Source: an uncultured Clostridia bacterium (GTDB lineage: Bacteria; Bacillota; Clostridia; TANB77; SIG350). Taken from it: a stretch of 64,000 nucleotides of DNA. Shown piece after piece: positions 9,170-17,391 of this stretch (the stretch's first letter is position 1; the number at the start of each line of letters is the position of its first letter). Position numbers and translations under genes: made by a program. Location: NCBI GenBank assembly GCA_944393615.1, contig CALYAQ010000011.1, forward strand, positions 16,661-80,660. Reading direction: 5' to 3'. The notes under the pieces are model-generated. The model worked only from the letters and a program-made list of their open reading frames with translations. It had not been told where the DNA came from and made no database searches.

Positions 9170-9440
9170 AAAACCTCCTAAAAAAATATAACTATACTTT
9201 GTCTTTAATAGGACGAAGTATAGTTTCGCGGTACCACCTAAATTTATATAACATTTATTTTTAAAAAACACATTATATACACTCTTTACTTTTAACGCAA
9301 GTTAAACGTCATTTTCTACTCTTTTCAAAAATGAATCTCAAAAGTGAAATTTCAACAAAGGCCGTTTTAGTAGGCTCCCAGCTAATAACCTACATTCTCT
9401 AATTTAAAACAGTTACTTTATTTACTTTGCTTTGTCATCG
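9170..9440 (-). ncRNA. T-box riboswitch leader for pheST
   Basis: The minus strand carries the conserved T-box sequence AAATTTAGGTGGTACCGCG (forward 9227-9239 = CGCGGTACCACCT). Immediately downstream is a terminator hairpin ACTATACTTCGTC/GACAAAGTATAGT plus U-run, just before the pheS RBS. A GAAATTTCA element containing a UUC (Phe) codon lies upstream. Confidence 0.65.
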
Positions 9441-9510
9441 ATTTTTATTAAACTATATATATATTATCATAATATTTAAAAAAAATCAACAAATTTTATA
9501 TAAAATATTG

Positions 9511-9545: not shown

Positions 9546-9548
9546 CAT

Positions 9549-9635
9549 GCAGGAGTGGCGGAACTGGCAGACGCACAGGACTTAAAATCCTGCGGGACTT
9601 ATACTCCCGTACCGGTTCGATTCCGGTTTCCTGCA
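9549..9635 (+). tRNA. tRNA-Leu (anticodon UAA), long variable arm
   Basis: GCAGGAG acceptor stem, anticodon loop CUUAAAA and T-arm ACCGGTTCGATTCCGGT. A hairpin plus T-run follows at 9702-9731. Confidence 0.9.
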
Positions 9636-9701
9636 ACAAAAAACATTACTCGAACCACATATATTTCTTATATAGTTTTGCGGTAAAAGTATATTTATAT
9701 C

Positions 9702-11627: not shown

Positions 11628-12713
11628 TTATTTTCCCTTTTTTATCATATTGTCTTTTGCTATATTAAACAAAGTGCCTAGGCTTTTTGTAATTATCTCT
11701 TTACTTTTTTTATCAATATTTTGATATGATTTTAATACCATTTTTGTGTTATCAAACCATTTGTCGGTAAGTTCTGACAATGTTTTTGCTTTTGTTGAAT
11801 TAATTACTTGAAATACAATATTTACAAATTGTTCTCTTTGTTTACTATCCACCTCTATTAACCAAGTCTTTAGTGTTTTATCAATTATTTTACTGCCATC
11901 TGTAACCTCGTCAACATACAAAAATTGGGGACCCATCAATTGCCATGTGTATAAATCGTGTTGTAATAGTCCAACTTGTGTACTTTTTACAACCGTATAT
12001 TTTTCTTCGTGATTTAACAACCTTCCTACAATAGAAGATTGTGGTACAAATGTGTGTATCTTTTCTAATACTCTTTTATAATTTTGAGTATTAGTTATTT
12101 TTTCTCCAAAGCCAGGACCGTCGTTATTATATATTTCTATAATTCTTTTTTGATAAATAGCTTTACAAAAAGCCGATGCATAAACAGCTAAATTACCACC
12201 TTTCGAATGTCCTCCAACTCGTATAGGCACTCTTTTATGCGTATTTGCAACATTTTCTAAATATTGTACTGCATCTAATTGAGAATATATTATATCTTTA
12301 AAGCTCATATTGAAATCTTCTTTCCAGCCAACAATAGTATTGTCTGTTCCTCTATATGAAATATATATTGTTCTATCAGGTAATATAACTGTAATTGCTG
12401 AAAATTGTTTTTCTTCTTCAGTATCAATTTTGTTAACATATTTAGTTAAAATAAGATTAGCAAACCTTTTACTCTTGGCTAATGCAGGAAATAGCTCCAT
12501 ATCCTCTTTTTGTAATATTTCAACACTATTAATATCTTTTTTCTTAAATCTTTCATACGTTTGTTTTAAAGTAACTTCTTCATTTTCCCCTATTATATCA
12601 TCAAAAGGGAAATATGCAACTCTTGACAAAATTAAATTATCTATTTCGTTAAATTTAGCTTGAGTTATATCTAATTCTCCTCTCCATTGAACATAATCAA
12701 ATATATTAGCCAT
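11628..12713 (-). CDS. Alpha/beta-hydrolase-fold protein (DUF2974/Mbeg1-like, lipase-type GHSxG nucleophile elbow)
   Basis: 'GGHSKGGNLAVYASAF'. No signal peptide. Confidence 0.5.
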   Translation of the reverse strand: MANIFDYVQWRGELDITQAKFNEIDNLILSRVAYFPFDDIIGENEEVTLKQTYERFKKKDINSVEILQKEDMELFPALAKSKRFANLILTKYVNKIDTEEEKQFSAITVILPDRTIYISYRGTDNTIVGWKEDFNMSFKDIIYSQLDAVQYLENVANTHKRVPIRVGGHSKGGNLAVYASAFCKAIYQKRIIEIYNNDGPGFGEKITNTQNYKRVLEKIHTFVPQSSIVGRLLNHEEKYTVVKSTQVGLLQHDLYTWQLMGPQFLYVDEVTDGSKIIDKTLKTWLIEVDSKQREQFVNIVFQVINSTKAKTLSELTDKWFDNTKMVLKSYQNIDKKSKEIITKSLGTLFNIAKDNMIKKGK

Positions 12714-12782
12714 ATACTCATTTCCTTTCTATATATTTATTTAAAGTCCAGTTATACTATATTAACTGGACTTTTGCTTTTT

Positions 12783-13019
12783 CTATTTTTCTTCTATTTC
12801 TAAATTTTCTTGTACATTTTCTTTTGCTTGTTTTTCTTTTTCTAAACCTTCAAGATATTTAGCCATTGCCCTTCTATTTTTTAAAACTAATCCTGGGTTT
12901 TGATTTTGTTCTACTTTTGGCTTATCACTTGTATCAAATGTTTCTAGGTTTTCTTCTCCAAATTGTTCTTTGTTTTTTTCTTCTCTTTTCTCGATATCGT
13001 CTTCAATATCATACGCCAT
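12783..13019 (-). CDS. Small acidic hypothetical protein (78 aa, E/K-rich)
   Basis: The ORF has coding-like composition. No recognisable family. Confidence 0.45.
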   Translation of the reverse strand: MAYDIEDDIEKREEKNKEQFGEENLETFDTSDKPKVEQNQNPGLVLKNRRAMAKYLEGLEKEKQAKENVQENLEIEEK

Positions 13020-13158
13020 ATTATCACACCTTTCAAAAATAAAATACCATTATTTCTTTAAAAAGTCAACATTCATAATATAATTGTTATTGAATTTTAA
13101 TACATTTTATGTTAAAGTAAACTTAAATATTGTAAAAGCAGATTGAAAGGAAACTATT

Positions 13159-13722
13159 ATGAAAAACAAAATAACCAAATTTGATTTCAAAAAATATTTT
13201 ATATTTTTTATGCTATATGCAATTATAGGGTGGATGTATGAGGTTTTTTTAGAGGTTGTTGTATATGGGTGGGGATTTACAAATAGAGGTGTGTTATTCG
13301 GTCCATACTGCCCTGTATATGGTTTTGGAGCTTTGGCTTTTATATTTACTCTTTATAATTTAATAAAAGGAAAAAGTATAAAGCAAAAGCTTTTAATGAT
13401 TCCAATTGTTTTTTTAGGTTGTATGTTTATTGCAACAAGTATAGAATTGATAACTTCATATATTTGTGAATTTATATTAGGTTACTGGCCTTGGCAAACA
13501 TACGTTAATTATAGTATAAATTTTGAAGGAAGAATAGCTCTATCTCCTTCAATTAGGTTTGGAATTGGCGGACTTATATTCTTATATATATTACAACCTC
13601 TTTTCGAAAAATTATATAATTCAATAAAAAACACAGTATTGAAATTTGTTTTTTACACTTTAGCGCTAATATTATCTTGTGATATAATTATAACAATATT
13701 AACATTTATTCAATTAAACTAA
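13159..13722 (+). CDS. Integral membrane protein, 'putative ABC-transporter type IV'/DUF1113-like family; paralog of 26383..27120
   Basis: Shared motifs 'IGWxxE' and 'GPxxP(V/I)YG(F/V)GA' with the ORF at 26383..27120. Confidence 0.55.
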   Translation: MKNKITKFDFKKYFIFFMLYAIIGWMYEVFLEVVVYGWGFTNRGVLFGPYCPVYGFGALAFIFTLYNLIKGKSIKQKLLMIPIVFLGCMFIATSIELITSYICEFILGYWPWQTYVNYSINFEGRIALSPSIRFGIGGLIFLYILQPLFEKLYNSIKNTVLKFVFYTLALILSCDIIITILTFIQLN

Positions 13723-13737
13723 ATACACACATTGCTA

Positions 13738-13770
13738 TTGACTTGCGTGTGCATTTAGTTTAAAATATAG
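13738..13770 (+). promoter_or_regulatory. Promoter for the abiE pair (TTGACT -35 / TAAAAT -10), with a short inverted repeat ACACA..TGTGT flanking the -35
   Basis: TTGACTTGCGTGTGCATTTAGTTTAAAATAT. AbiEi antitoxins are known to autoregulate through inverted repeats at the promoter. Confidence 0.35.
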
Positions 13771-13774
13771 TTAG

Positions 13775-14326
13775 GTGATAAAAATGTTATATACACATAA
13801 AGAATTATTAAATAAATATAAATCAAATTATCAAATTGAAAAAGCGGTTAAAGAAAAGAAAATTTTTAAAATTGAAAAAGGTATTTATGCAGACAAAAAG
13901 AATCTTCATTACTTAGAATTACTTGTTAAAAAATACCCGAAAGCAATAATTACTGGTGAATCTGCTTATTATTATCATCATCTAACAGATGTGATACCAG
14001 ATAGAATATATTTAGCAACAAATAGAACTGCTGTAAGAATAAATAATAATAAAATTAAGCAAATTTCAGCAAGTGATAATCTATTTGAATTAGGAAAAGA
14101 AACTTTAGTTTATGAAGGTGTAACCATCAATATTTATAATAAAGAAAGAATGTTAATTGATTTAACTAGAAACAAAAAACAAATAGGATATGATTTATAT
14201 AAAGAAATAATATCTAATTATAGAAAATTAGCAAATTCATTAGATACACAAAAGATAGAAGAATATTTACAATACTTTGTAAATGGAGATAAATTTTTTG
14301 AAATAATACAAGATGAGGTGTTTTAA
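13775..14326 (+). CDS. abiEi: AbiEi-family antitoxin/transcriptional regulator (type IV toxin-antitoxin)
   Basis: 183 aa, with an N-terminal wHTH-like region ending in '..IEKGIYA'. It overlaps the downstream NTase gene by 1 nt (TAATG). Confidence 0.6.
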   Translation: MIKMLYTHKELLNKYKSNYQIEKAVKEKKIFKIEKGIYADKKNLHYLELLVKKYPKAIITGESAYYYHHLTDVIPDRIYLATNRTAVRINNNKIKQISASDNLFELGKETLVYEGVTINIYNKERMLIDLTRNKKQIGYDLYKEIISNYRKLANSLDTQKIEEYLQYFVNGDKFFEIIQDEVF

Positions 14327-15153
14327 TGGATATATATGAATTAGTAAACAAATATATATATGCAGGTTATTCTGAAAATGATGCTATTCCAAAAGTTGCT
14401 CAAGACATAGTTCTACTTAAAATTGGAAATAGCAAATATAATAAGAATATTACTGTAAAAGGTGGAGTTGTAATGCACAACATTTCTAAAGATATGCGTC
14501 GTGCAACTCGAGATATGGACATTGATTTTATAAAGTATTCTTTGGAAGATAAATCAATACTTAATTTTATAAAAGAATTAAATAATGTAGATGATGATAT
14601 AAAAATAAAAGTTACCGGAAAAATCGAAGCTTTACATCATCAAGATTACAATGGGAAAAGAATTTATATACAACTAACTGACAGTAATAAGTATTCAATA
14701 AGTTCTAAACTAGATATTGGAGTACATAAGTATTTTGATATAGAACAAGATGAGTATTATTTTGATTTAAATATAATTGATGAAAGTGTACGTCTTCTTA
14801 TAAATTCAAAGGAACAAATAATTGTTGAAAAATTAAAATCATTATTAAAATTTGGTATTACATCTACAAGATTTAAAGATATATTTGATTTTTATTATTT
14901 AATAAATAACGAAGATTTAAGTACGGACAAGCTAGTAAAATACATAGATATATTAATTTTTCAAGATGAAGACATGAGAGAAAATGAATTAAAAGATATA
15001 CATATTAGATTAACCAATATATTAAATAATCATAGATTTCAATCAAGAATTAACACAGCCAATAACAACTGGTTGGAAATACCTATAACAAATGTTATTA
15101 ATAATGTTTTGGAATATTTTGAAGATTTAATAAAAAAGCTACAAACAATTTAG
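14326..15153 (+). CDS. abiEii: AbiEii/AbiGii-family nucleotidyltransferase toxin (DUF1814)
   Basis: 'VKGGVVMHNISKDMRRATRDMDIDF' matches the AbiEii pattern KGGTAL...R.SEDLDF. The gene is translationally coupled to the upstream ORF. Confidence 0.65.
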   Translation: MDIYELVNKYIYAGYSENDAIPKVAQDIVLLKIGNSKYNKNITVKGGVVMHNISKDMRRATRDMDIDFIKYSLEDKSILNFIKELNNVDDDIKIKVTGKIEALHHQDYNGKRIYIQLTDSNKYSISSKLDIGVHKYFDIEQDEYYFDLNIIDESVRLLINSKEQIIVEKLKSLLKFGITSTRFKDIFDFYYLINNEDLSTDKLVKYIDILIFQDEDMRENELKDIHIRLTNILNNHRFQSRINTANNNWLEIPITNVINNVLEYFEDLIKKLQTI

Positions 15154-15301
15154 TTTTTAATGTTTTTGTAACAACCATGAAATATTCATGTAAAAAAATT
15201 CGTCAACATAATTGACTTTTCTTATGTTTCTTGATATACTAGTATAGTAATTATATAATAATTATACCAAATCTCTTTTAATTAAAAGAGAGGAGCCAAA
15301 C

Positions 15302-15769
15302 ATGAGATTTACTACAAAAGATTGGAAAGAATATGCACAAAATTGTGGTGTAGCAGAAGAGGACGTAAAAAAAATCATTACAATTGCAAATAAGATTGGA
15401 AAAAATATTTCTGATAAAGAGTTGGAATTATCCGTATTCCATGATGCAATGAGAATTTTTTTAGTTAATGTAAGAGCAAATGCAACTTTTAAACAAACAA
15501 ATGAAAAAGTATCAAATGAATTTTTCTTAAAGTTTGTTAACAAAGAAGTTCTTAATGTAGATGAAGTTACTAACCCACTTGAAGAATACATTTATGTATT
15601 AGGGCTAATTAGGCATTTACTTTTAAAAGAATCTTTCTCGTTCCTCCATTCTGCAGGATATATTGAAAAACTCAAAAAAGGTTTAACAGTTGAAACTGAC
15701 CTTGAAAAAGCATATTTTGTTTATGCATTTGAAGTTACCGAAGAGTATATATCTAAACAGTGTGTTTAA
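15302..15769 (+). CDS. Hypothetical protein (155 aa) downstream of the abiE pair, with its own promoter
   Basis: TTGACT...TATACT promoter at ~15209-15245 and an AAAAGAGAGGAG RBS. No family recognised. Confidence 0.45.
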   Translation: MRFTTKDWKEYAQNCGVAEEDVKKIITIANKIGKNISDKELELSVFHDAMRIFLVNVRANATFKQTNEKVSNEFFLKFVNKEVLNVDEVTNPLEEYIYVLGLIRHLLLKESFSFLHSAGYIEKLKKGLTVETDLEKAYFVYAFEVTEEYISKQCV

Positions 15770-15773
15770 TCTA

Positions 15774-15808
15774 TTTACATACAAAGCAAACATTTTGTTT
15801 GCTTTTTA
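15774..15808. terminator. Bidirectional terminator hairpin (AAAGCAAACATTTTGTTTGCTTTTT) between convergent ORFs
   Basis: Perfect 9-bp stem with flanking A/T runs. Confidence 0.55.
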
Positions 15809-16147
15809 TGTTTCTTGTGGTAATTGTCCTATTTTTCTTTTTAATCTTTCTATCTGTTCATCATACATTTTTATTAGTCCTGTTATTTGTTCTTTTGTTA
15901 ATTTTTCCTCTGAAATTAATTCATTATCATATTGTTCTTTTAAACTCATTAAATCCGCTTCTTTTTTTACTTCTTCAGTTACCTTTATATTATCTAGAAA
16001 ACCCTCTTTTGTTTCAACCTCTTCTTGATTTTGTATTGGCTGTTTTATTTGAACCTCTATTTCTTTTTTTCCAAATATTTTTTTAAAAAAGTTTTTTATT
16101 TTGTTTAAAATTCCTTTTTCTTCTACTTTTATTAAATTATTGTTCAT
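15806..16147 (-). CDS. Hypothetical K/E-rich coiled-coil-like protein (113 aa)
   Basis: The minus-strand ORF has natural composition and a GGGAGA RBS. The overlapping plus-strand ORFs are low-complexity antisense artefacts. Confidence 0.4.
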   Translation of the reverse strand: MNNNLIKVEEKGILNKIKNFFKKIFGKKEIEVQIKQPIQNQEEVETKEGFLDNIKVTEEVKKEADLMSLKEQYDNELISEEKLTKEQITGLIKMYDEQIERLKRKIGQLPQET

Positions 16148-16416
16148 ATTATTTCATCTCCCAACATTTTTTATTATTAAATCATATATAAAGCAAAATT
16201 ACAATATATAAATTCTTTTTTCCTATTGCATTAAATCCTTTTTTCGTATATAATAAAAAAAGATAAGGGAGTAATTAGCATACTAATATGTAATAAAGCC
16301 AACAGCCGATTTTTATAAAATCTGGTTTTATTGTAAATAATGAGACTTATCTGCATATAAAATTGCAGGCTCAAGTCTTGTTTTTGTATGTATAGTTATT
16401 AATTAAGGGGGAGAAA

Positions 16417-17391
16417 ATGATTGTAAATATTATATTAGTTGTTGTAGGTTTTTTACTATTAGTTAAGGGTGCGGACTTCTTAGTTGACGGTGCTAGTAGT
16501 GTAGCAAGAAAATTTAAAATTCCACAAATTGTAATTGGTCTTACTATTGTTGCTATTGGTACATCAACACCCGAATTGGTTGTAAGTTTAAATTCTGCTA
16601 TGAATGGACATTCTGACATCGCAATAGGCAATGTAATTGGCAGTAATTTAGTAAATTTGTTATTTATACTTGGTATATGTGCAATAATTAAGCCTCTACC
16701 CTTTCAAAAAGGTTCTGTAAAATTTGAAATACCTTTTTCTATCGCTATTACAGTTCTATTATTTATACTTTGTATAAATGGTAATGGAAACCTTTCAAAT
16801 ATAATTACACGTGGAGAAGGAATAGTATTATTAATATTATGCATTTTATTTATATTATATAATTTTAAATTATCTAAACAAAGTAGAGAATTATATGAAG
16901 AAACAAGCGAAACAAATGAAGATAACACCAAATTTTCTTTATTAAAATCAATAGGTTTTATCACTATTGGTATTTTAGGACTTAAATTCGGCGGCGATTT
17001 AGTTGTTAATGGTTGTGTTGAAATTGCAACTATATTAGGTATAAGTGAAAAACTAATTGGCCTTACTATTATTGCTATTGGAACAAGCTTACCAGAATTA
17101 TTCACATCTGTAGTCGCTACTAGAAAAGGTGAAACAGATATAGCTATTGGTAATATTTTAGGTTCTCAAATATTTAATATATTGCTTATTATTGGTGTTT
17201 CGTCTATTATATCACCTATATCTTATGCAATTAGCTATAACAAGGATATAATATTGTTAATTATAGTTTCTGCAATTTTTGGATTATTCCCATTTTTGGG
17301 ACAGAAAAATTATATGACTAAATCAAACGGTATATTATTTGTTAGTATTTATTTAATTTATATTATTACATTAGTATTTATGGATGCTTAA
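16417..17391 (+). CDS. Ca2+/Na+ antiporter, CaCA family (YrbG-like)
   Basis: Two alpha-repeat motifs, 'GTSTPELVVS' and 'GTSLPELFTS'. Confidence 0.85.
   Translation: MIVNIILVVVGFLLLVKGADFLVDGASSVARKFKIPQIVIGLTIVAIGTSTPELVVSLNSAMNGHSDIAIGNVIGSNLVNLLFILGICAIIKPLPFQKGSVKFEIPFSIAITVLLFILCINGNGNLSNIITRGEGIVLLILCILFILYNFKLSKQSRELYEETSETNEDNTKFSLLKSIGFITIGILGLKFGGDLVVNGCVEIATILGISEKLIGLTIIAIGTSLPELFTSVVATRKGETDIAIGNILGSQIFNILLIIGVSSIISPISYAISYNKDIILLIIVSAIFGLFPFLGQKNYMTKSNGILFVSIYLIYIITLVFMDA

Follow-up and report, generated by a model that had tools for sequence, protein, structure and literature searches.

An intact AbiEi/AbiEii cassette, very probably self-contained and mobile, in the chromosome of an uncultured gut Bacillota

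Introduction

How much of a run of four small genes in the chromosome of an uncultured, low-GC gut Bacillota belongs to a toxin-antitoxin system, and what might that system do there? The question arises in a 64,000-nt stretch of contig CALYAQ010000011.1 (hereafter the window), in which a first-pass annotation had read four ORFs, all present where it had placed them, as a small defence islet: an AbiEi/AbiEii pair followed by two genes of no recognisable family, ORF3 and ORF4. AbiE, first classed as a type IV toxin-antitoxin/abortive-infection system and moved to type VII in a 2026 reclassification (bioRxiv 10.64898/2026.01.19.700257), is among the commonest bacterial defence/toxin-antitoxin systems: according to the DefenseFinder preprint, 10-17% of genomes carry AbiEii. 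The family corresponds to COG5340-COG2253/DUF1814. We argue that positions 13712 to ~15153 of the window are an AbiE cassette of two genes that is complete in itself and moves horizontally (Table 1); taken as a whole, including a mechanism transferred by homology, this explanation is very probably correct.

Table 1. Features of the AbiE cassette and of the two genes downstream (window positions)
Feature	Position	Strand	Description
Inverted repeat, left arm	13714..13730	+	TTAAACTAAATACACAC; upstream of -35; marks left cassette edge
abiE promoter	13738..13766	+	-35 TTGACT 13738-13743, 17-nt spacer, -10 TAAAAT 13761-13766; sigma-70-like
Inverted repeat, right arm	13747..13763	+	GTGTGCATTTAGTTTAA; fills promoter spacer, covers first 3 nt of -10
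abiEi Shine-Dalgarno (SD)	13773-13778	+	AGGTGA, ahead of ATG 13784
abiEi	13784..14326	+	180-aa antitoxin, predicted autorepressor; wHTH N-terminal domain and C-terminal domain; PADLOC AbiEi full length
abiEii SD	14315-14320	+	GAGGTG, within abiEi
abiEii	14326..15153	+	275-aa DUF1814 nucleotidyltransferase toxin (by homology); predicted translational coupling to abiEi via TAATG
ORF3 promoter	15231-15259	+	TTGATA-17-TATAAT, 11/12, near-consensus
ORF3 SD	15290-15295	+	Strong
ORF3	15302..15769	+	155 aa; lineage-specific chromosomal gene; outside AbiE system
Terminator-like hairpin	15783-15805		Bidirectional; ORF3 and ORF4 converge on it
ORF4	15806..16147	-	113 aa, K/E-rich; backbone gene; outside AbiE system

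Results

Identity of the gene pair

Profile, structure and residue evidence all bear out the AbiEi/AbiEii identification. The toxin matches Pfam PF08843 (score 60.7 bits, cutoff 22.5; E 2.6e-16), PADLOC AbiEii PDLC02310 (1.3e-103, residues 1-267 of 275) and PDB 9HLO_B (5e-8). Its translation contains the expected motif KGGVV...RATRDMDIDF, in which K45-G46-G47 is followed after 15 residues by D63-M-D65, and R59, K169 and K184-D185-I-F-D188 complete the nucleotidyltransferase (NTase) motifs I (hGG), II (R..DhD), III (a K within a hydrophobic helix) and IV (+DxxD); the GG pair, R59, T61, D63, D65, K169 and KDxxD align to GG, R63, T65, D67, D69, K173 and K188-D192 of Streptococcus agalactiae AbiEii. 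These key residues are identical in all six cassette copies discussed below and invariant, or nearly so in the case of D63, in 27 homologues. T61, the predicted phospho-acceptor two residues ahead of D63, is invariant in copies and homologues alike; its equivalents are T65 in S. agalactiae and S78 in MenT3 (family literature; bioRxiv 10.64898/2026.01.19.700257). The exception lies in the second basic residue of motif III: S. agalactiae R180, which influences the UTP/CTP preference and on which toxicity depends (bioRxiv 10.64898/2026.01.19.700257), aligns to F176, with K175 adjoining, so that the nucleotide and tRNA specificity of the window toxin cannot be inferred. The AF2 model of the toxin (pLDDT 85.7, pTM 0.81) assigns it the DUF1814 NTase fold: its top eight Foldseek matches in the PDB are all MenT3/TglT or MenT1 (E 5e-7; MenT3 TM 0.54-0.57).

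The antitoxin, a COG5340-type AbiEi, is recognised by PADLOC AbiEi PDLC02238 over the whole profile (2.7e-67, 1-180/180) and by 19 further AbiEi models, and residues 19-161 match PDB 6Y8Q_A/9HLO_A at 1e-7. The Pfam AbiEi families and NCBIfam return nothing for it at E<=0.1; PADLOC and the PDB were needed for a match, and the profile check proposed for the pair thus succeeds through PF08843 and the PADLOC AbiEi and AbiEii models. The first-pass annotation had begun abiEi at GTG 13775, a placement that we revise: this codon falls within the Shine-Dalgarno sequence, and, because residues 4-183 of the GTG-initiated version cover all 180 positions of the PADLOC profile and genes called in public databases are 180 aa long, the start is almost certainly ATG 13784. 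A loop, T68-D69-V70-I71-P72, is kept as TDV[I/V]P in every cassette copy and aligns to TDEIP of S. agalactiae AbiEi, whose D85-E86-I87 are required for toxin binding and neutralisation (bioRxiv 10.64898/2026.01.19.700257).

As annotated at first, the genes overlap by 1 nt at a TAATG junction (TAA 14324-14326, ATG 14326-14328), and TAATG or TGATG is kept in 6/6 copies. The antitoxin gene comes first, the toxin gene overlaps it and has its own SD inside abiEi, a layout that appears bicistronic. Among the cassette copies dN/dS is 0.15-0.31 for abiEi and 0.10-0.12 for abiEii (0.10-0.31 across the pair), which points to purifying selection on both genes. Judged by these features, the pair is an ordinary intact copy of a very common AbiEi/AbiEii toxin-antitoxin (abortive-infection) system. 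The system is already known: the subfamily has dedicated PADLOC models and named entries, public databases annotate cluster mates of both proteins as AbiEi and AbiEii, and the antitoxin shares a >=90% cluster with the UniRef "AbiEi antitoxin" of Candidatus Merdicola faecigallinarum.

Promoter and operator-like repeat

In DNA of 26% GC a promoter scan is of little help, with 36 promoter-like matches found and 29 expected, barely above chance; the abiE promoter is therefore called on the strength of its conservation, as in 6/6 distinct cassette copies the -10 reads TAAAAT without variation and the -35 reads T[T/C]GAC. An inverted repeat with 17-nt arms (16/17 complementary, 94%) separated by 16 nt lies around the -35 and reaches into the -10, and its left arm contains the stop codon (13720-13722) of the upstream CmpB-like gene. 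Over the six distinct copies the arms are 92% complementary, as against 26-48% for slid controls, and 6/17 positions have changed on both arms. This covariation fits an AbiEi operator, an indication, not a conclusion, given a sample of six operator sequences (n=6). Conservation and covariation thus uphold the shared promoter with an inverted repeat around its -35 that had been proposed for the pair, the operator role being a prediction.

Extent and mobility of the cassette

A 1.4-kb unit (13712 to ~15136) recurs in five other, unrelated contexts at 75-90% DNA identity, compared with ~70% between the window backbone and its nearest relative. All alignments begin at 13712-13714 and end at 15047-15136, just inside the 3' end of abiEii, beyond which the genes all differ. 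The six contexts in all include an integrase/relaxase element; sister cassettes ride integrative elements that carry an integrase (L089) or an integrase, a DUF6076 gene and a relaxase (L092-L097). Delimited by these alignments, the inserted unit measures ~1.4 kb, with the CmpB-like gene on its left and ORF3 on its right. The earlier placement of an insertion between a membrane-protein gene and the CaCA antiporter gene hence stands on its left side, where the neighbour is CmpB-like, and gives way on its right, since the unit stops before ORF3 instead of running 2.4 kb to CaCA. Lengths agree closely between the window pair (180 and 275 aa) and the sister cassettes (180 and 273-275 aa), and identical copies occur in at least four independent metagenome assemblies.

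Neither target-site duplications flanking the cassette nor a recombinase for its movement was detected, and there are no mobile-element genes within about 8-10 kb of the window copy. The genes around it are housekeeping genes, so the site is not a defence island. Composition is uninformative, as the cassette (GC 22.8%, GC3 0.10-0.14) is only slightly below the backbone. Genome contigs scanned with the flanking CaCA protein gave at best 47% identity, hence no close relative and no useful empty site, and the CmpB-like protein, used as query against metagenomes, found relatives of 54-68% only, none with abiE, ORF3 or ORF4. With AbiEii as query, viral contigs yielded nothing, a phage collection one 25% match and no close homologue, and plasmids only matches below 30% identity.

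The two downstream genes

ORF3 belongs to a very rare family, with three clusters (its own and two others) among 1.84 billion representatives. Both other clusters adjoin Mbeg1-like genes without abiE. At the same chromosomal position in the relative L067, genes for an Mbeg1-like protein and an acidic protein are followed by ORF3, ORF4 and then CaCA, as in the window; L068/L069 carry the Mbeg1-like gene and ORF3. The ORF3 promoter region (15212-15301) aligns with L068, a second relative in which the ORF3 homologue keeps this position. The ORF4 homologue in L067 is 60% identical and syntenic; more distant ones (39-46%) come from contigs of only 1-3 kb, on which no abiE is called alongside. All five other cassette contexts are devoid of both genes. 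The neighbourhood comparison that had been suggested for ORF3 and ORF4 thus finds homologues occurring apart from abiE, and cassettes occurring apart from them. On this distribution, they are unrelated backbone genes of the host lineage, not defence genes.

The descriptive part of the first-pass annotation holds for these genes: ORF3 has its own near-consensus promoter, conserved in L068, ORF4 converges on it, the two meeting at a hairpin, and neither falls into a recognisable family, searches of PHROGs, PADLOC, Pfam and NCBIfam returning nothing credible. One nominal hit, of ORF4 to phrog_88 "major tail protein" (E 0.0033), covers the K/E-rich region and was rejected as a presumed low-complexity match. 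The AF2 model of ORF3 is all-helical (pLDDT 52.6) and, coming from a three-sequence alignment, too poor for a fold search. Rfam gave nothing over 15150-16430 but a sub-threshold RefA9 match on the terminator hairpin, and no convincing terminator was found between abiEii and ORF3.

Comparison with known systems

The closest characterised counterpart is AbiEi-AbiEii of S. agalactiae V/R 2603 (PDB 6Y8Q, 9HLO; Dy et al. 2014, PMC3985639; Arrowsmith et al. 2026), which likewise has overlapping genes with the antitoxin first, a two-domain antitoxin (about 180-196 aa across the two systems), a DUF1814 toxin (275-287 aa), a TD[E/V]IP loop and the catalytic and regulatory residues GG, R63, T65, D67, D69, K173 and KDxxD192, all matched in the window toxin. 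Its promoter, PabiE, has the same -10 hexamer TAAAAT and an inverted-repeat pair over the promoter (PMC3985639), and the AbiEi-bound IR1/IR2 offer an analogue of the window repeat (PMC3985639, PMC7319586). The differences are nonetheless considerable: the proteins are only distantly similar (phmmer E 1e-7 to 5e-8), the genes overlap by 1 nt in the window and by 4 nt in S. agalactiae, the operators are unrelated in sequence and differ in geometry (17-nt arms and a 16-nt gap versus 23-nt arms and a 3-nt gap), and R180 is replaced by F176.

Much closer is the pair of Ca. Merdicola faecigallinarum (HIU51855.1/HIU51854.1; L087, GCA_018714565.1), which is 89.5% identical in DNA over the whole 1.4-kb cassette, shares the operator-like repeat, promoter, TAATG junction and 90% AbiEi cluster, and has proteins that UniRef already calls AbiEi antitoxin and NCBI already assigns to the AbiEii/AbiGii toxin family. 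It differs in genomic context, in the C-terminal tail of AbiEii and in a gene for a 432-aa Ser/Thr kinase that begins 15 nt after abiEii and has no counterpart in the window. In structure, the AbiEii model comes closest (TM 0.56, probability 1.00) to the toxins of Mycobacterium tuberculosis MenA3-MenT3 (Rv1044-Rv1045, TglT/TakA) and MenT1, which are just 10-12% identical to it in sequence. MenT toxins are DUF1814 NTases that target tRNA acceptor stems and are neutralised through antitoxin-dependent Ser/Thr phosphorylation near the catalytic aspartates, and nucleotide and tRNA specificities vary among family members (PMC7450476, PMC7205606). The family was founded on a two-gene abortive-infection system, AbiE (pNP40)/AbiG of Lactococcus lactis, which, unlike the window copy, is plasmid-borne; in tblastn the window AbiEii matches lactococcal plasmid AbiEii/AbiGii genes across 64% of its length with about 27% identity. 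The lactococcal AbiE antitoxin is longer than the window AbiEi.

Discussion

A proposed mechanism

The comparisons show directly which two genes the cassette holds, that their catalytic and regulatory residues are intact and that selection on them is purifying; they also show the co-varying palindromic operator-like repeat that overlaps the promoter, the boundaries of the cassette and its mobility. Because the characterised S. agalactiae proteins resemble the window pair only distantly in sequence, the mechanism is carried over by homology only, from S. agalactiae AbiE and M. tuberculosis MenAT (bioRxiv 10.64898/2026.01.19.700257). We posit that two AbiEi monomers would occupy the two 17-nt arms, around the -35 and over the -10, and thereby repress the bicistronic operon, while the TDVIP loop of AbiEi would bind AbiEii and induce its auto-phosphorylation on T61, switching off nucleotidyltransferase activity. 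Were AbiEi depleted or the phosphate removed, for example upon phage infection or element loss, AbiEii would add nucleotides to tRNA 3' ends, as its S. agalactiae homolog adds pyrimidines (bioRxiv 10.64898/2026.01.19.700257). The ensuing stop in translation and bacteriostasis could abort phage replication, stabilise the cassette-bearing DNA, or both. Phage defence by the window cassette is unproven, and S. agalactiae AbiE expressed in Escherichia coli protected against 0/32 coliphages (bioRxiv 10.64898/2026.01.19.700257).

Alternative readings

That ORF3 and ORF4 are accessory or independent defence genes, which arrived along with abiE in the interval from the CmpB-like gene to CaCA, is very unlikely and already largely refuted. 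The two genes do adjoin abiE, read-through is possible for want of a convincing terminator after abiEii, neither gene is assigned to a family, and ORF3 is extremely rare, like many defence genes; yet L067 has both and L068/L069 have ORF3 without abiE, the ORF3 promoter aligns with that of L068, the distant ORF4 homologues have no abiE called nearby (on contigs of just 1-3 kb), homology to the five other cassette contexts stops before ORF3 with different genes downstream, and neither gene has a PADLOC match. The four-gene defence islet accordingly dissolves into a two-gene cassette and its neighbours. At the left edge, the overlap of the repeat with the CmpB stop codon could suggest a transcription terminator of that gene in place of an operator, and arm covariation would suit an RNA hairpin equally well. 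This too is highly improbable: the repeat accompanies the cassette in six settings whose upstream regions are unrelated, its 16-nt "loop" holds the conserved -35, the right arm is followed by the conserved -10 and no T-tract, and a terminator scan makes no call there. Nor does the cassette look like a decaying, non-functional remnant, an idea we find scarcely credible. It could be prompted by the C-terminal 9-10 residues of AbiEii, which are unlike those of the sister copies and lie where homology ends; against it stand two full-length ORFs with all catalytic residues, the low dN/dS, an intact promoter, operator-like repeat, SDs and TAATG coupling, and the identical copies in independent assemblies.

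More serious is the question of what an active AbiE module does here. It might act mainly as a selfish or addiction module that stabilises DNA, not as phage defence, which we regard as possible but rather doubtful. Several observations point that way: sister cassettes ride integrative elements, published AbiE systems stabilise plasmids and ICEs (PMC3985639, PMC11062541), and the S. agalactiae system failed to protect against 32 coliphages. The window cassette, however, sits among housekeeping genes, and the lack of mobile-element genes nearby leaves nothing obvious to stabilise; moreover, L. lactis AbiE does protect its host from phage, as do the relatives from Serratia and RlegTA/SanaTA. One role does not preclude the other.

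Significance and kinase-linked sisters

Beyond correct annotation, the AbiE cassette has little significance. The mobile unit is precisely delimited, from the operator-like repeat to the abiEii stop; ORF3 and ORF4 should not be annotated as defence genes; and the six co-varying operator/antitoxin pairs are a possible set for specificity studies.

Operator-like repeat, abiEi and abiEii very probably move as a discrete 1.4-kb module that ends on the left exactly at the repeat arm. In some sister copies this module is followed, 11-15 nt after abiEii, by a gene for a Ser/Thr kinase, which is of interest as a lead now that phosphorylation has recently been found to control AbiEii. One could imagine that the kinase of the sisters acts on the T61 phospho-switch to give a three-component, kinase-controlled AbiE variant, and that the window copy is the kinase-less ancestral or reduced form. 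We consider this scenario unlikely; a weaker variant would link ORF3 functionally to abiE by read-through in the host lineage.

The AbiE pair

All four ORFs of the first-pass annotation are present at the positions it gave, and the two that it read as an AbiEi/AbiEii pair share the claimed 1-nt overlap (TAATG, between the ORF ending at 14326 and the next). The downstream member carries the predicted nucleotidyltransferase motif, KGGVVMHNISKDMRRATRDMDIDF, matches Pfam PF08843 at 60.7 bits (cutoff 22.5), is covered full length by its PADLOC model at 1.3e-103, and hits Streptococcus agalactiae AbiEii (9HLO_B, 5e-8) in a search of solved structures. The sole significant PDB matches of its AlphaFold model (27-homologue input; pLDDT 85.7, pTM 0.81) are Mycobacterium tuberculosis MenT3/TglT (TM ~0.56, probability 1.00) and MenT1. 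A HMMER alignment to 9HLO_B, read with published mutagenesis (PMC3985639; bioRxiv 10.64898/2026.01.19.700257), located the key residues (table), which six cassette copies share without change and which are invariant, D63 nearly so, among 27 homologues (67-89% identity); homologues number 2932 at E<=1e-10, the nearest ~90% identical. The sole differing key residue is S. agalactiae R180, needed for toxicity and tied to UTP/CTP preference (bioRxiv 10.64898/2026.01.19.700257); its counterpart is F176, adjoined by K175, so the nucleotide preference of the window AbiEii is not predictable.

AbiEi matches its best PADLOC model over the full length (2.7e-67), 19 further AbiEi models, and the S. agalactiae AbiEi structures at 1e-7. 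The profile check suggested earlier thus succeeded with PADLOC for both proteins and with Pfam for AbiEii; for AbiEi, no Pfam or NCBIfam model matched at E<=0.1. The identity proposed for AbiEi stands, but not the start: GTG 13775 falls within the Shine-Dalgarno AGGTGA (13773-13778), 5 nt 5' of ATG 13784, residues 4-183 of the GTG form align with positions 1-180/180 of the best PADLOC model, and public gene calls give 180 aa, so translation almost certainly begins at ATG 13784. The S. agalactiae loop D85-E86-I87, within TDEIP, is essential to bind and neutralise the toxin (bioRxiv 10.64898/2026.01.19.700257); its counterpart at aa 68-72 is TDVIP, and TDV[I/V]P recurs in all copies. Purifying selection acts on both genes (dN/dS 0.15-0.31 for abiEi, 0.10-0.12 for abiEii). 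Everything testable that bears on AbiE membership was found, a Pfam antitoxin match excepted, and the system is intact and probably active. UniRef and NCBI already give cluster mates the names AbiEi antitoxin and AbiEii/AbiGii toxin, PADLOC models span each protein end to end, and AbiEii ranks with the commonest defence genes (10-17% of genomes; DefenseFinder preprint); the pair is therefore an already known system.

Features of the abiE cassette, its neighbours and comparison loci (window coordinates unless a locus is named)
Feature	Position	Strand	Remarks
T-box leader 5' of pheS/pheT, adjacent tRNA-Leu(taa)	9206-9447; 9548-9637	-; +	Rfam 114.7 bits
Inverted repeat	arms 13714-13730 and 13747-13763		17 nt, 16/17 complementary
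abiE promoter	-35 13738-13743; -10 13761-13766	+	TTGACT, 17-nt spacer, TAAAAT; upstream of abiEi
abiEi	13784-14326	+	180-aa AbiEi antitoxin; PADLOC PDLC02238, PDB 6Y8Q_A/9HLO_A
abiEii	14326-15153	+	DUF1814 toxin; PF08843, PADLOC PDLC02310
AbiEii motif I	G46, G47		glycines present
AbiEii motif II	R59, D63, D65		S. agalactiae R63, D67, D69
AbiEii predicted phospho-acceptor	T61		S. agalactiae T65
AbiEii motif III	K169		S. agalactiae K173
AbiEii motif IV	K184-D185-x-x-D188		S. agalactiae K188 to D192
ORF3	15302-15769	+	promoter 15231-15259 (11/12, near-consensus), SD GAGGAG
Hairpin	15783-15805		convergence point of ORF3 and ORF4
ORF4	16147-15806	-	convergent with ORF3
CaCA leader	16148-16416		270 nt, intergenic
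ORF3 homologues	L067:1632-2084, L068:2766-3239
ORF4 relatives	L062:962-1351, L064:396-770, L065:569-931
Sister context	L084-L088		Ca. Merdicola faecigallinarum and relatives; 388-aa gene, abiE, kinase
Sister context	L090		NUDIX, abiE, kinase
Sister context	L089		386-aa gene, abiE, integrase on opposite strand
Sister context	L091		YpeB, abiE
Sister context	L092-L097		integrative element: integrase, DUF6076, abiE, DUF7695, relaxase
Integrative mobilisable element	L092:233-8822 (also L093-L097)		tyrosine integrase; cassette within
Different integrase with HipA-like genes	L089:7041-8387		adjoins cassette
386-388-aa gene 5' of abiEi	L084:3769-4935, L089:3964-5124		~70% DNA identity between them
Kinase gene	L084:6837-8135, L090:6836-8134, also L085-L088

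A candidate operator on the promoter

Promoter-like matches in this AT-rich DNA are barely enriched (36 observed versus 29 expected), so the abiE promoter call rests on conservation. In an alignment of six distinct cassette copies (the window and the sister loci L084, L089, L090, L091 and L092), every copy has TAAAAT as its -10, and the -35 reads TTGAC in five and TCGAC in one. The inverted repeat that had been noticed around the -35, its left arm 5' of that element and its right arm occupying the spacer and running into the -10, is kept and co-varies: the 17-nt arms remain complementary in 92% of cells, and both arms change at 6/17 positions, with paired changes such as AAAC/GTTT to AACC/GGTT, CTAAA/TTTAG to CTAAT/ATTAG and ACAC/GTGT to CTCC/GGAG. 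When, as a control, one arm was shifted against its partner by 1-3 nt, pairing fell to 26-48%. A role for the repeat as terminator of the CmpB-like gene upstream is unlikely: it accompanies the cassette behind unrelated upstream regions, the terminator "loop" would consist of the conserved -35, and the right arm is not followed by a T-tract. As a candidate operator, the repeat follows the promoter-overlapping logic of the S. agalactiae abiE promoter, where two AbiEi monomers have been shown experimentally to bind an inverted-repeat pair (PMC3985639, PMC7319586), although arm length, spacing and sequence differ. Across the six copies, AbiEi diverges faster from the window protein (60-90% aa identity) than AbiEii does (72-87%), consistent with antitoxin-operator co-evolution; together the copies offer a set of naturally occurring variants in antitoxin/operator specificity.

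A mobile cassette in a housekeeping backbone

The first-pass annotation had placed all four genes in a 2.4-kb defence islet reaching the CaCA gene. Judged by its recurring boundaries, the abiE unit is instead a 1.4-kb mobile cassette. In five further contexts, blastn matches to the window always start at 13712-13714, at the outer edge of the left arm, and end at 15047-15136, within the final ~100 nt of abiEii (75-89.5% identity); 3' of the cassette, window and sister sequences are unrelated. A search for a flanking target duplication found none. The two integrase-bearing contexts are plausible vehicles for cassette spread. The final codons and TAA stop of the CmpB-like gene (13712-13722) are supplied by the left arm; with this 3' end lying in cassette-derived sequence, insertion appears to have replaced the original one. 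The 386-388-aa gene, which has no Pfam or PADLOC match, may be an occasional companion, found in two otherwise different contexts.

Gene order and DNA alignment identify ORF3 and ORF4 as backbone genes. A relative without abiE (L067) has the order Mbeg1-like (68%), acidic small protein (48%), ORF3 (43%), ORF4 (60%), CaCA (74%), with neither CmpB nor abiE in it, and aligns to window 11637-13034 and 15442-16567. In a second (L068/L069), also without abiE, the ORF3 homologue adjoins the Mbeg1-like gene (72%), and L068 aligns to 11638-12726 and then 15212-15406, ORF3 promoter included. The CmpB-like gene is absent from both, and no closer relative was found. Nor did the suggested co-occurrence with abiE emerge, downstream sequence being unrelated in sister cassettes and the loci of the two other ORF3 clusters lacking abiE; none was called beside distant ORF4 homologues (39-46%), on contigs of only 1-3 kb. 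The ORF3 family comprises two other clusters only (44% and 38% identity) in an exhaustive HMMER search of 1.84 billion representatives. The neighbourhood consists of housekeeping genes (pheST with its T-box leader, cation-efflux, Mbeg1-like, CaCA, PAP2, M29 peptidase, SMC, ACP, plsX), and the locus is not a defence island.

The independent promoter and convergent arrangement described for ORF3 and ORF4 were borne out, and ORF3 looks well expressed from its strong promoter and Shine-Dalgarno sequence. ORF3 is predicted to be all-helical, its structure model being low-confidence and too weak to use, and it is always divergent from a nearby Mbeg1-like (PF11187) hydrolase gene. The ORF4 family shares an N-terminal NL[IV]K.EE...K[IV]KNFF.K[IL]F and a C-terminal LT.EQI..L..LYD.QI; distant relatives follow a 41-43-aa ORF and, in L063, also a SpoIIE-type phosphatase gene. 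The leader 5' of the CaCA gene lies within the L067 blastn alignment (~70% overall); it drew no match from Rfam and may have a regulatory role.

Proposed mechanism and a linked kinase

Extrapolating from the homologous S. agalactiae AbiE and MenAT systems (bioRxiv 10.64898/2026.01.19.700257, PMC3985639), we posit that AbiEi binds the DNA of both arms and thereby represses the operon, and that its binding to AbiEii would lead to auto-phosphorylation of T61, silencing the nucleotidyltransferase. Upon AbiEi loss or dephosphorylation, AbiEii would be free to add nucleotides to its presumed substrate, tRNA 3' ends, which could stop translation and result in abortive infection and/or stabilisation of the carrier DNA. 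S. agalactiae AbiE gave E. coli no protection against 32 phages (bioRxiv 10.64898/2026.01.19.700257). As to defence or addiction, sister copies lie on integrative elements and the window copy among housekeeping genes.

In sister cassettes with ~81-90% DNA identity to that of the window, abiEii is followed after 11-15 nt by a gene that encodes a 432-aa Ser/Thr kinase, has its own RBS and is missing from the window; the product matches Pfam Pkinase (2.4e-22), PADLOC PD-T4-6 (5.8e-34) and PADLOC Stk2. Since AbiEii neutralisation by Thr phosphorylation has been reported (bioRxiv 10.64898/2026.01.19.700257), the linked kinase gene might encode a regulator, or might just be a defence gene that happens to lie alongside.
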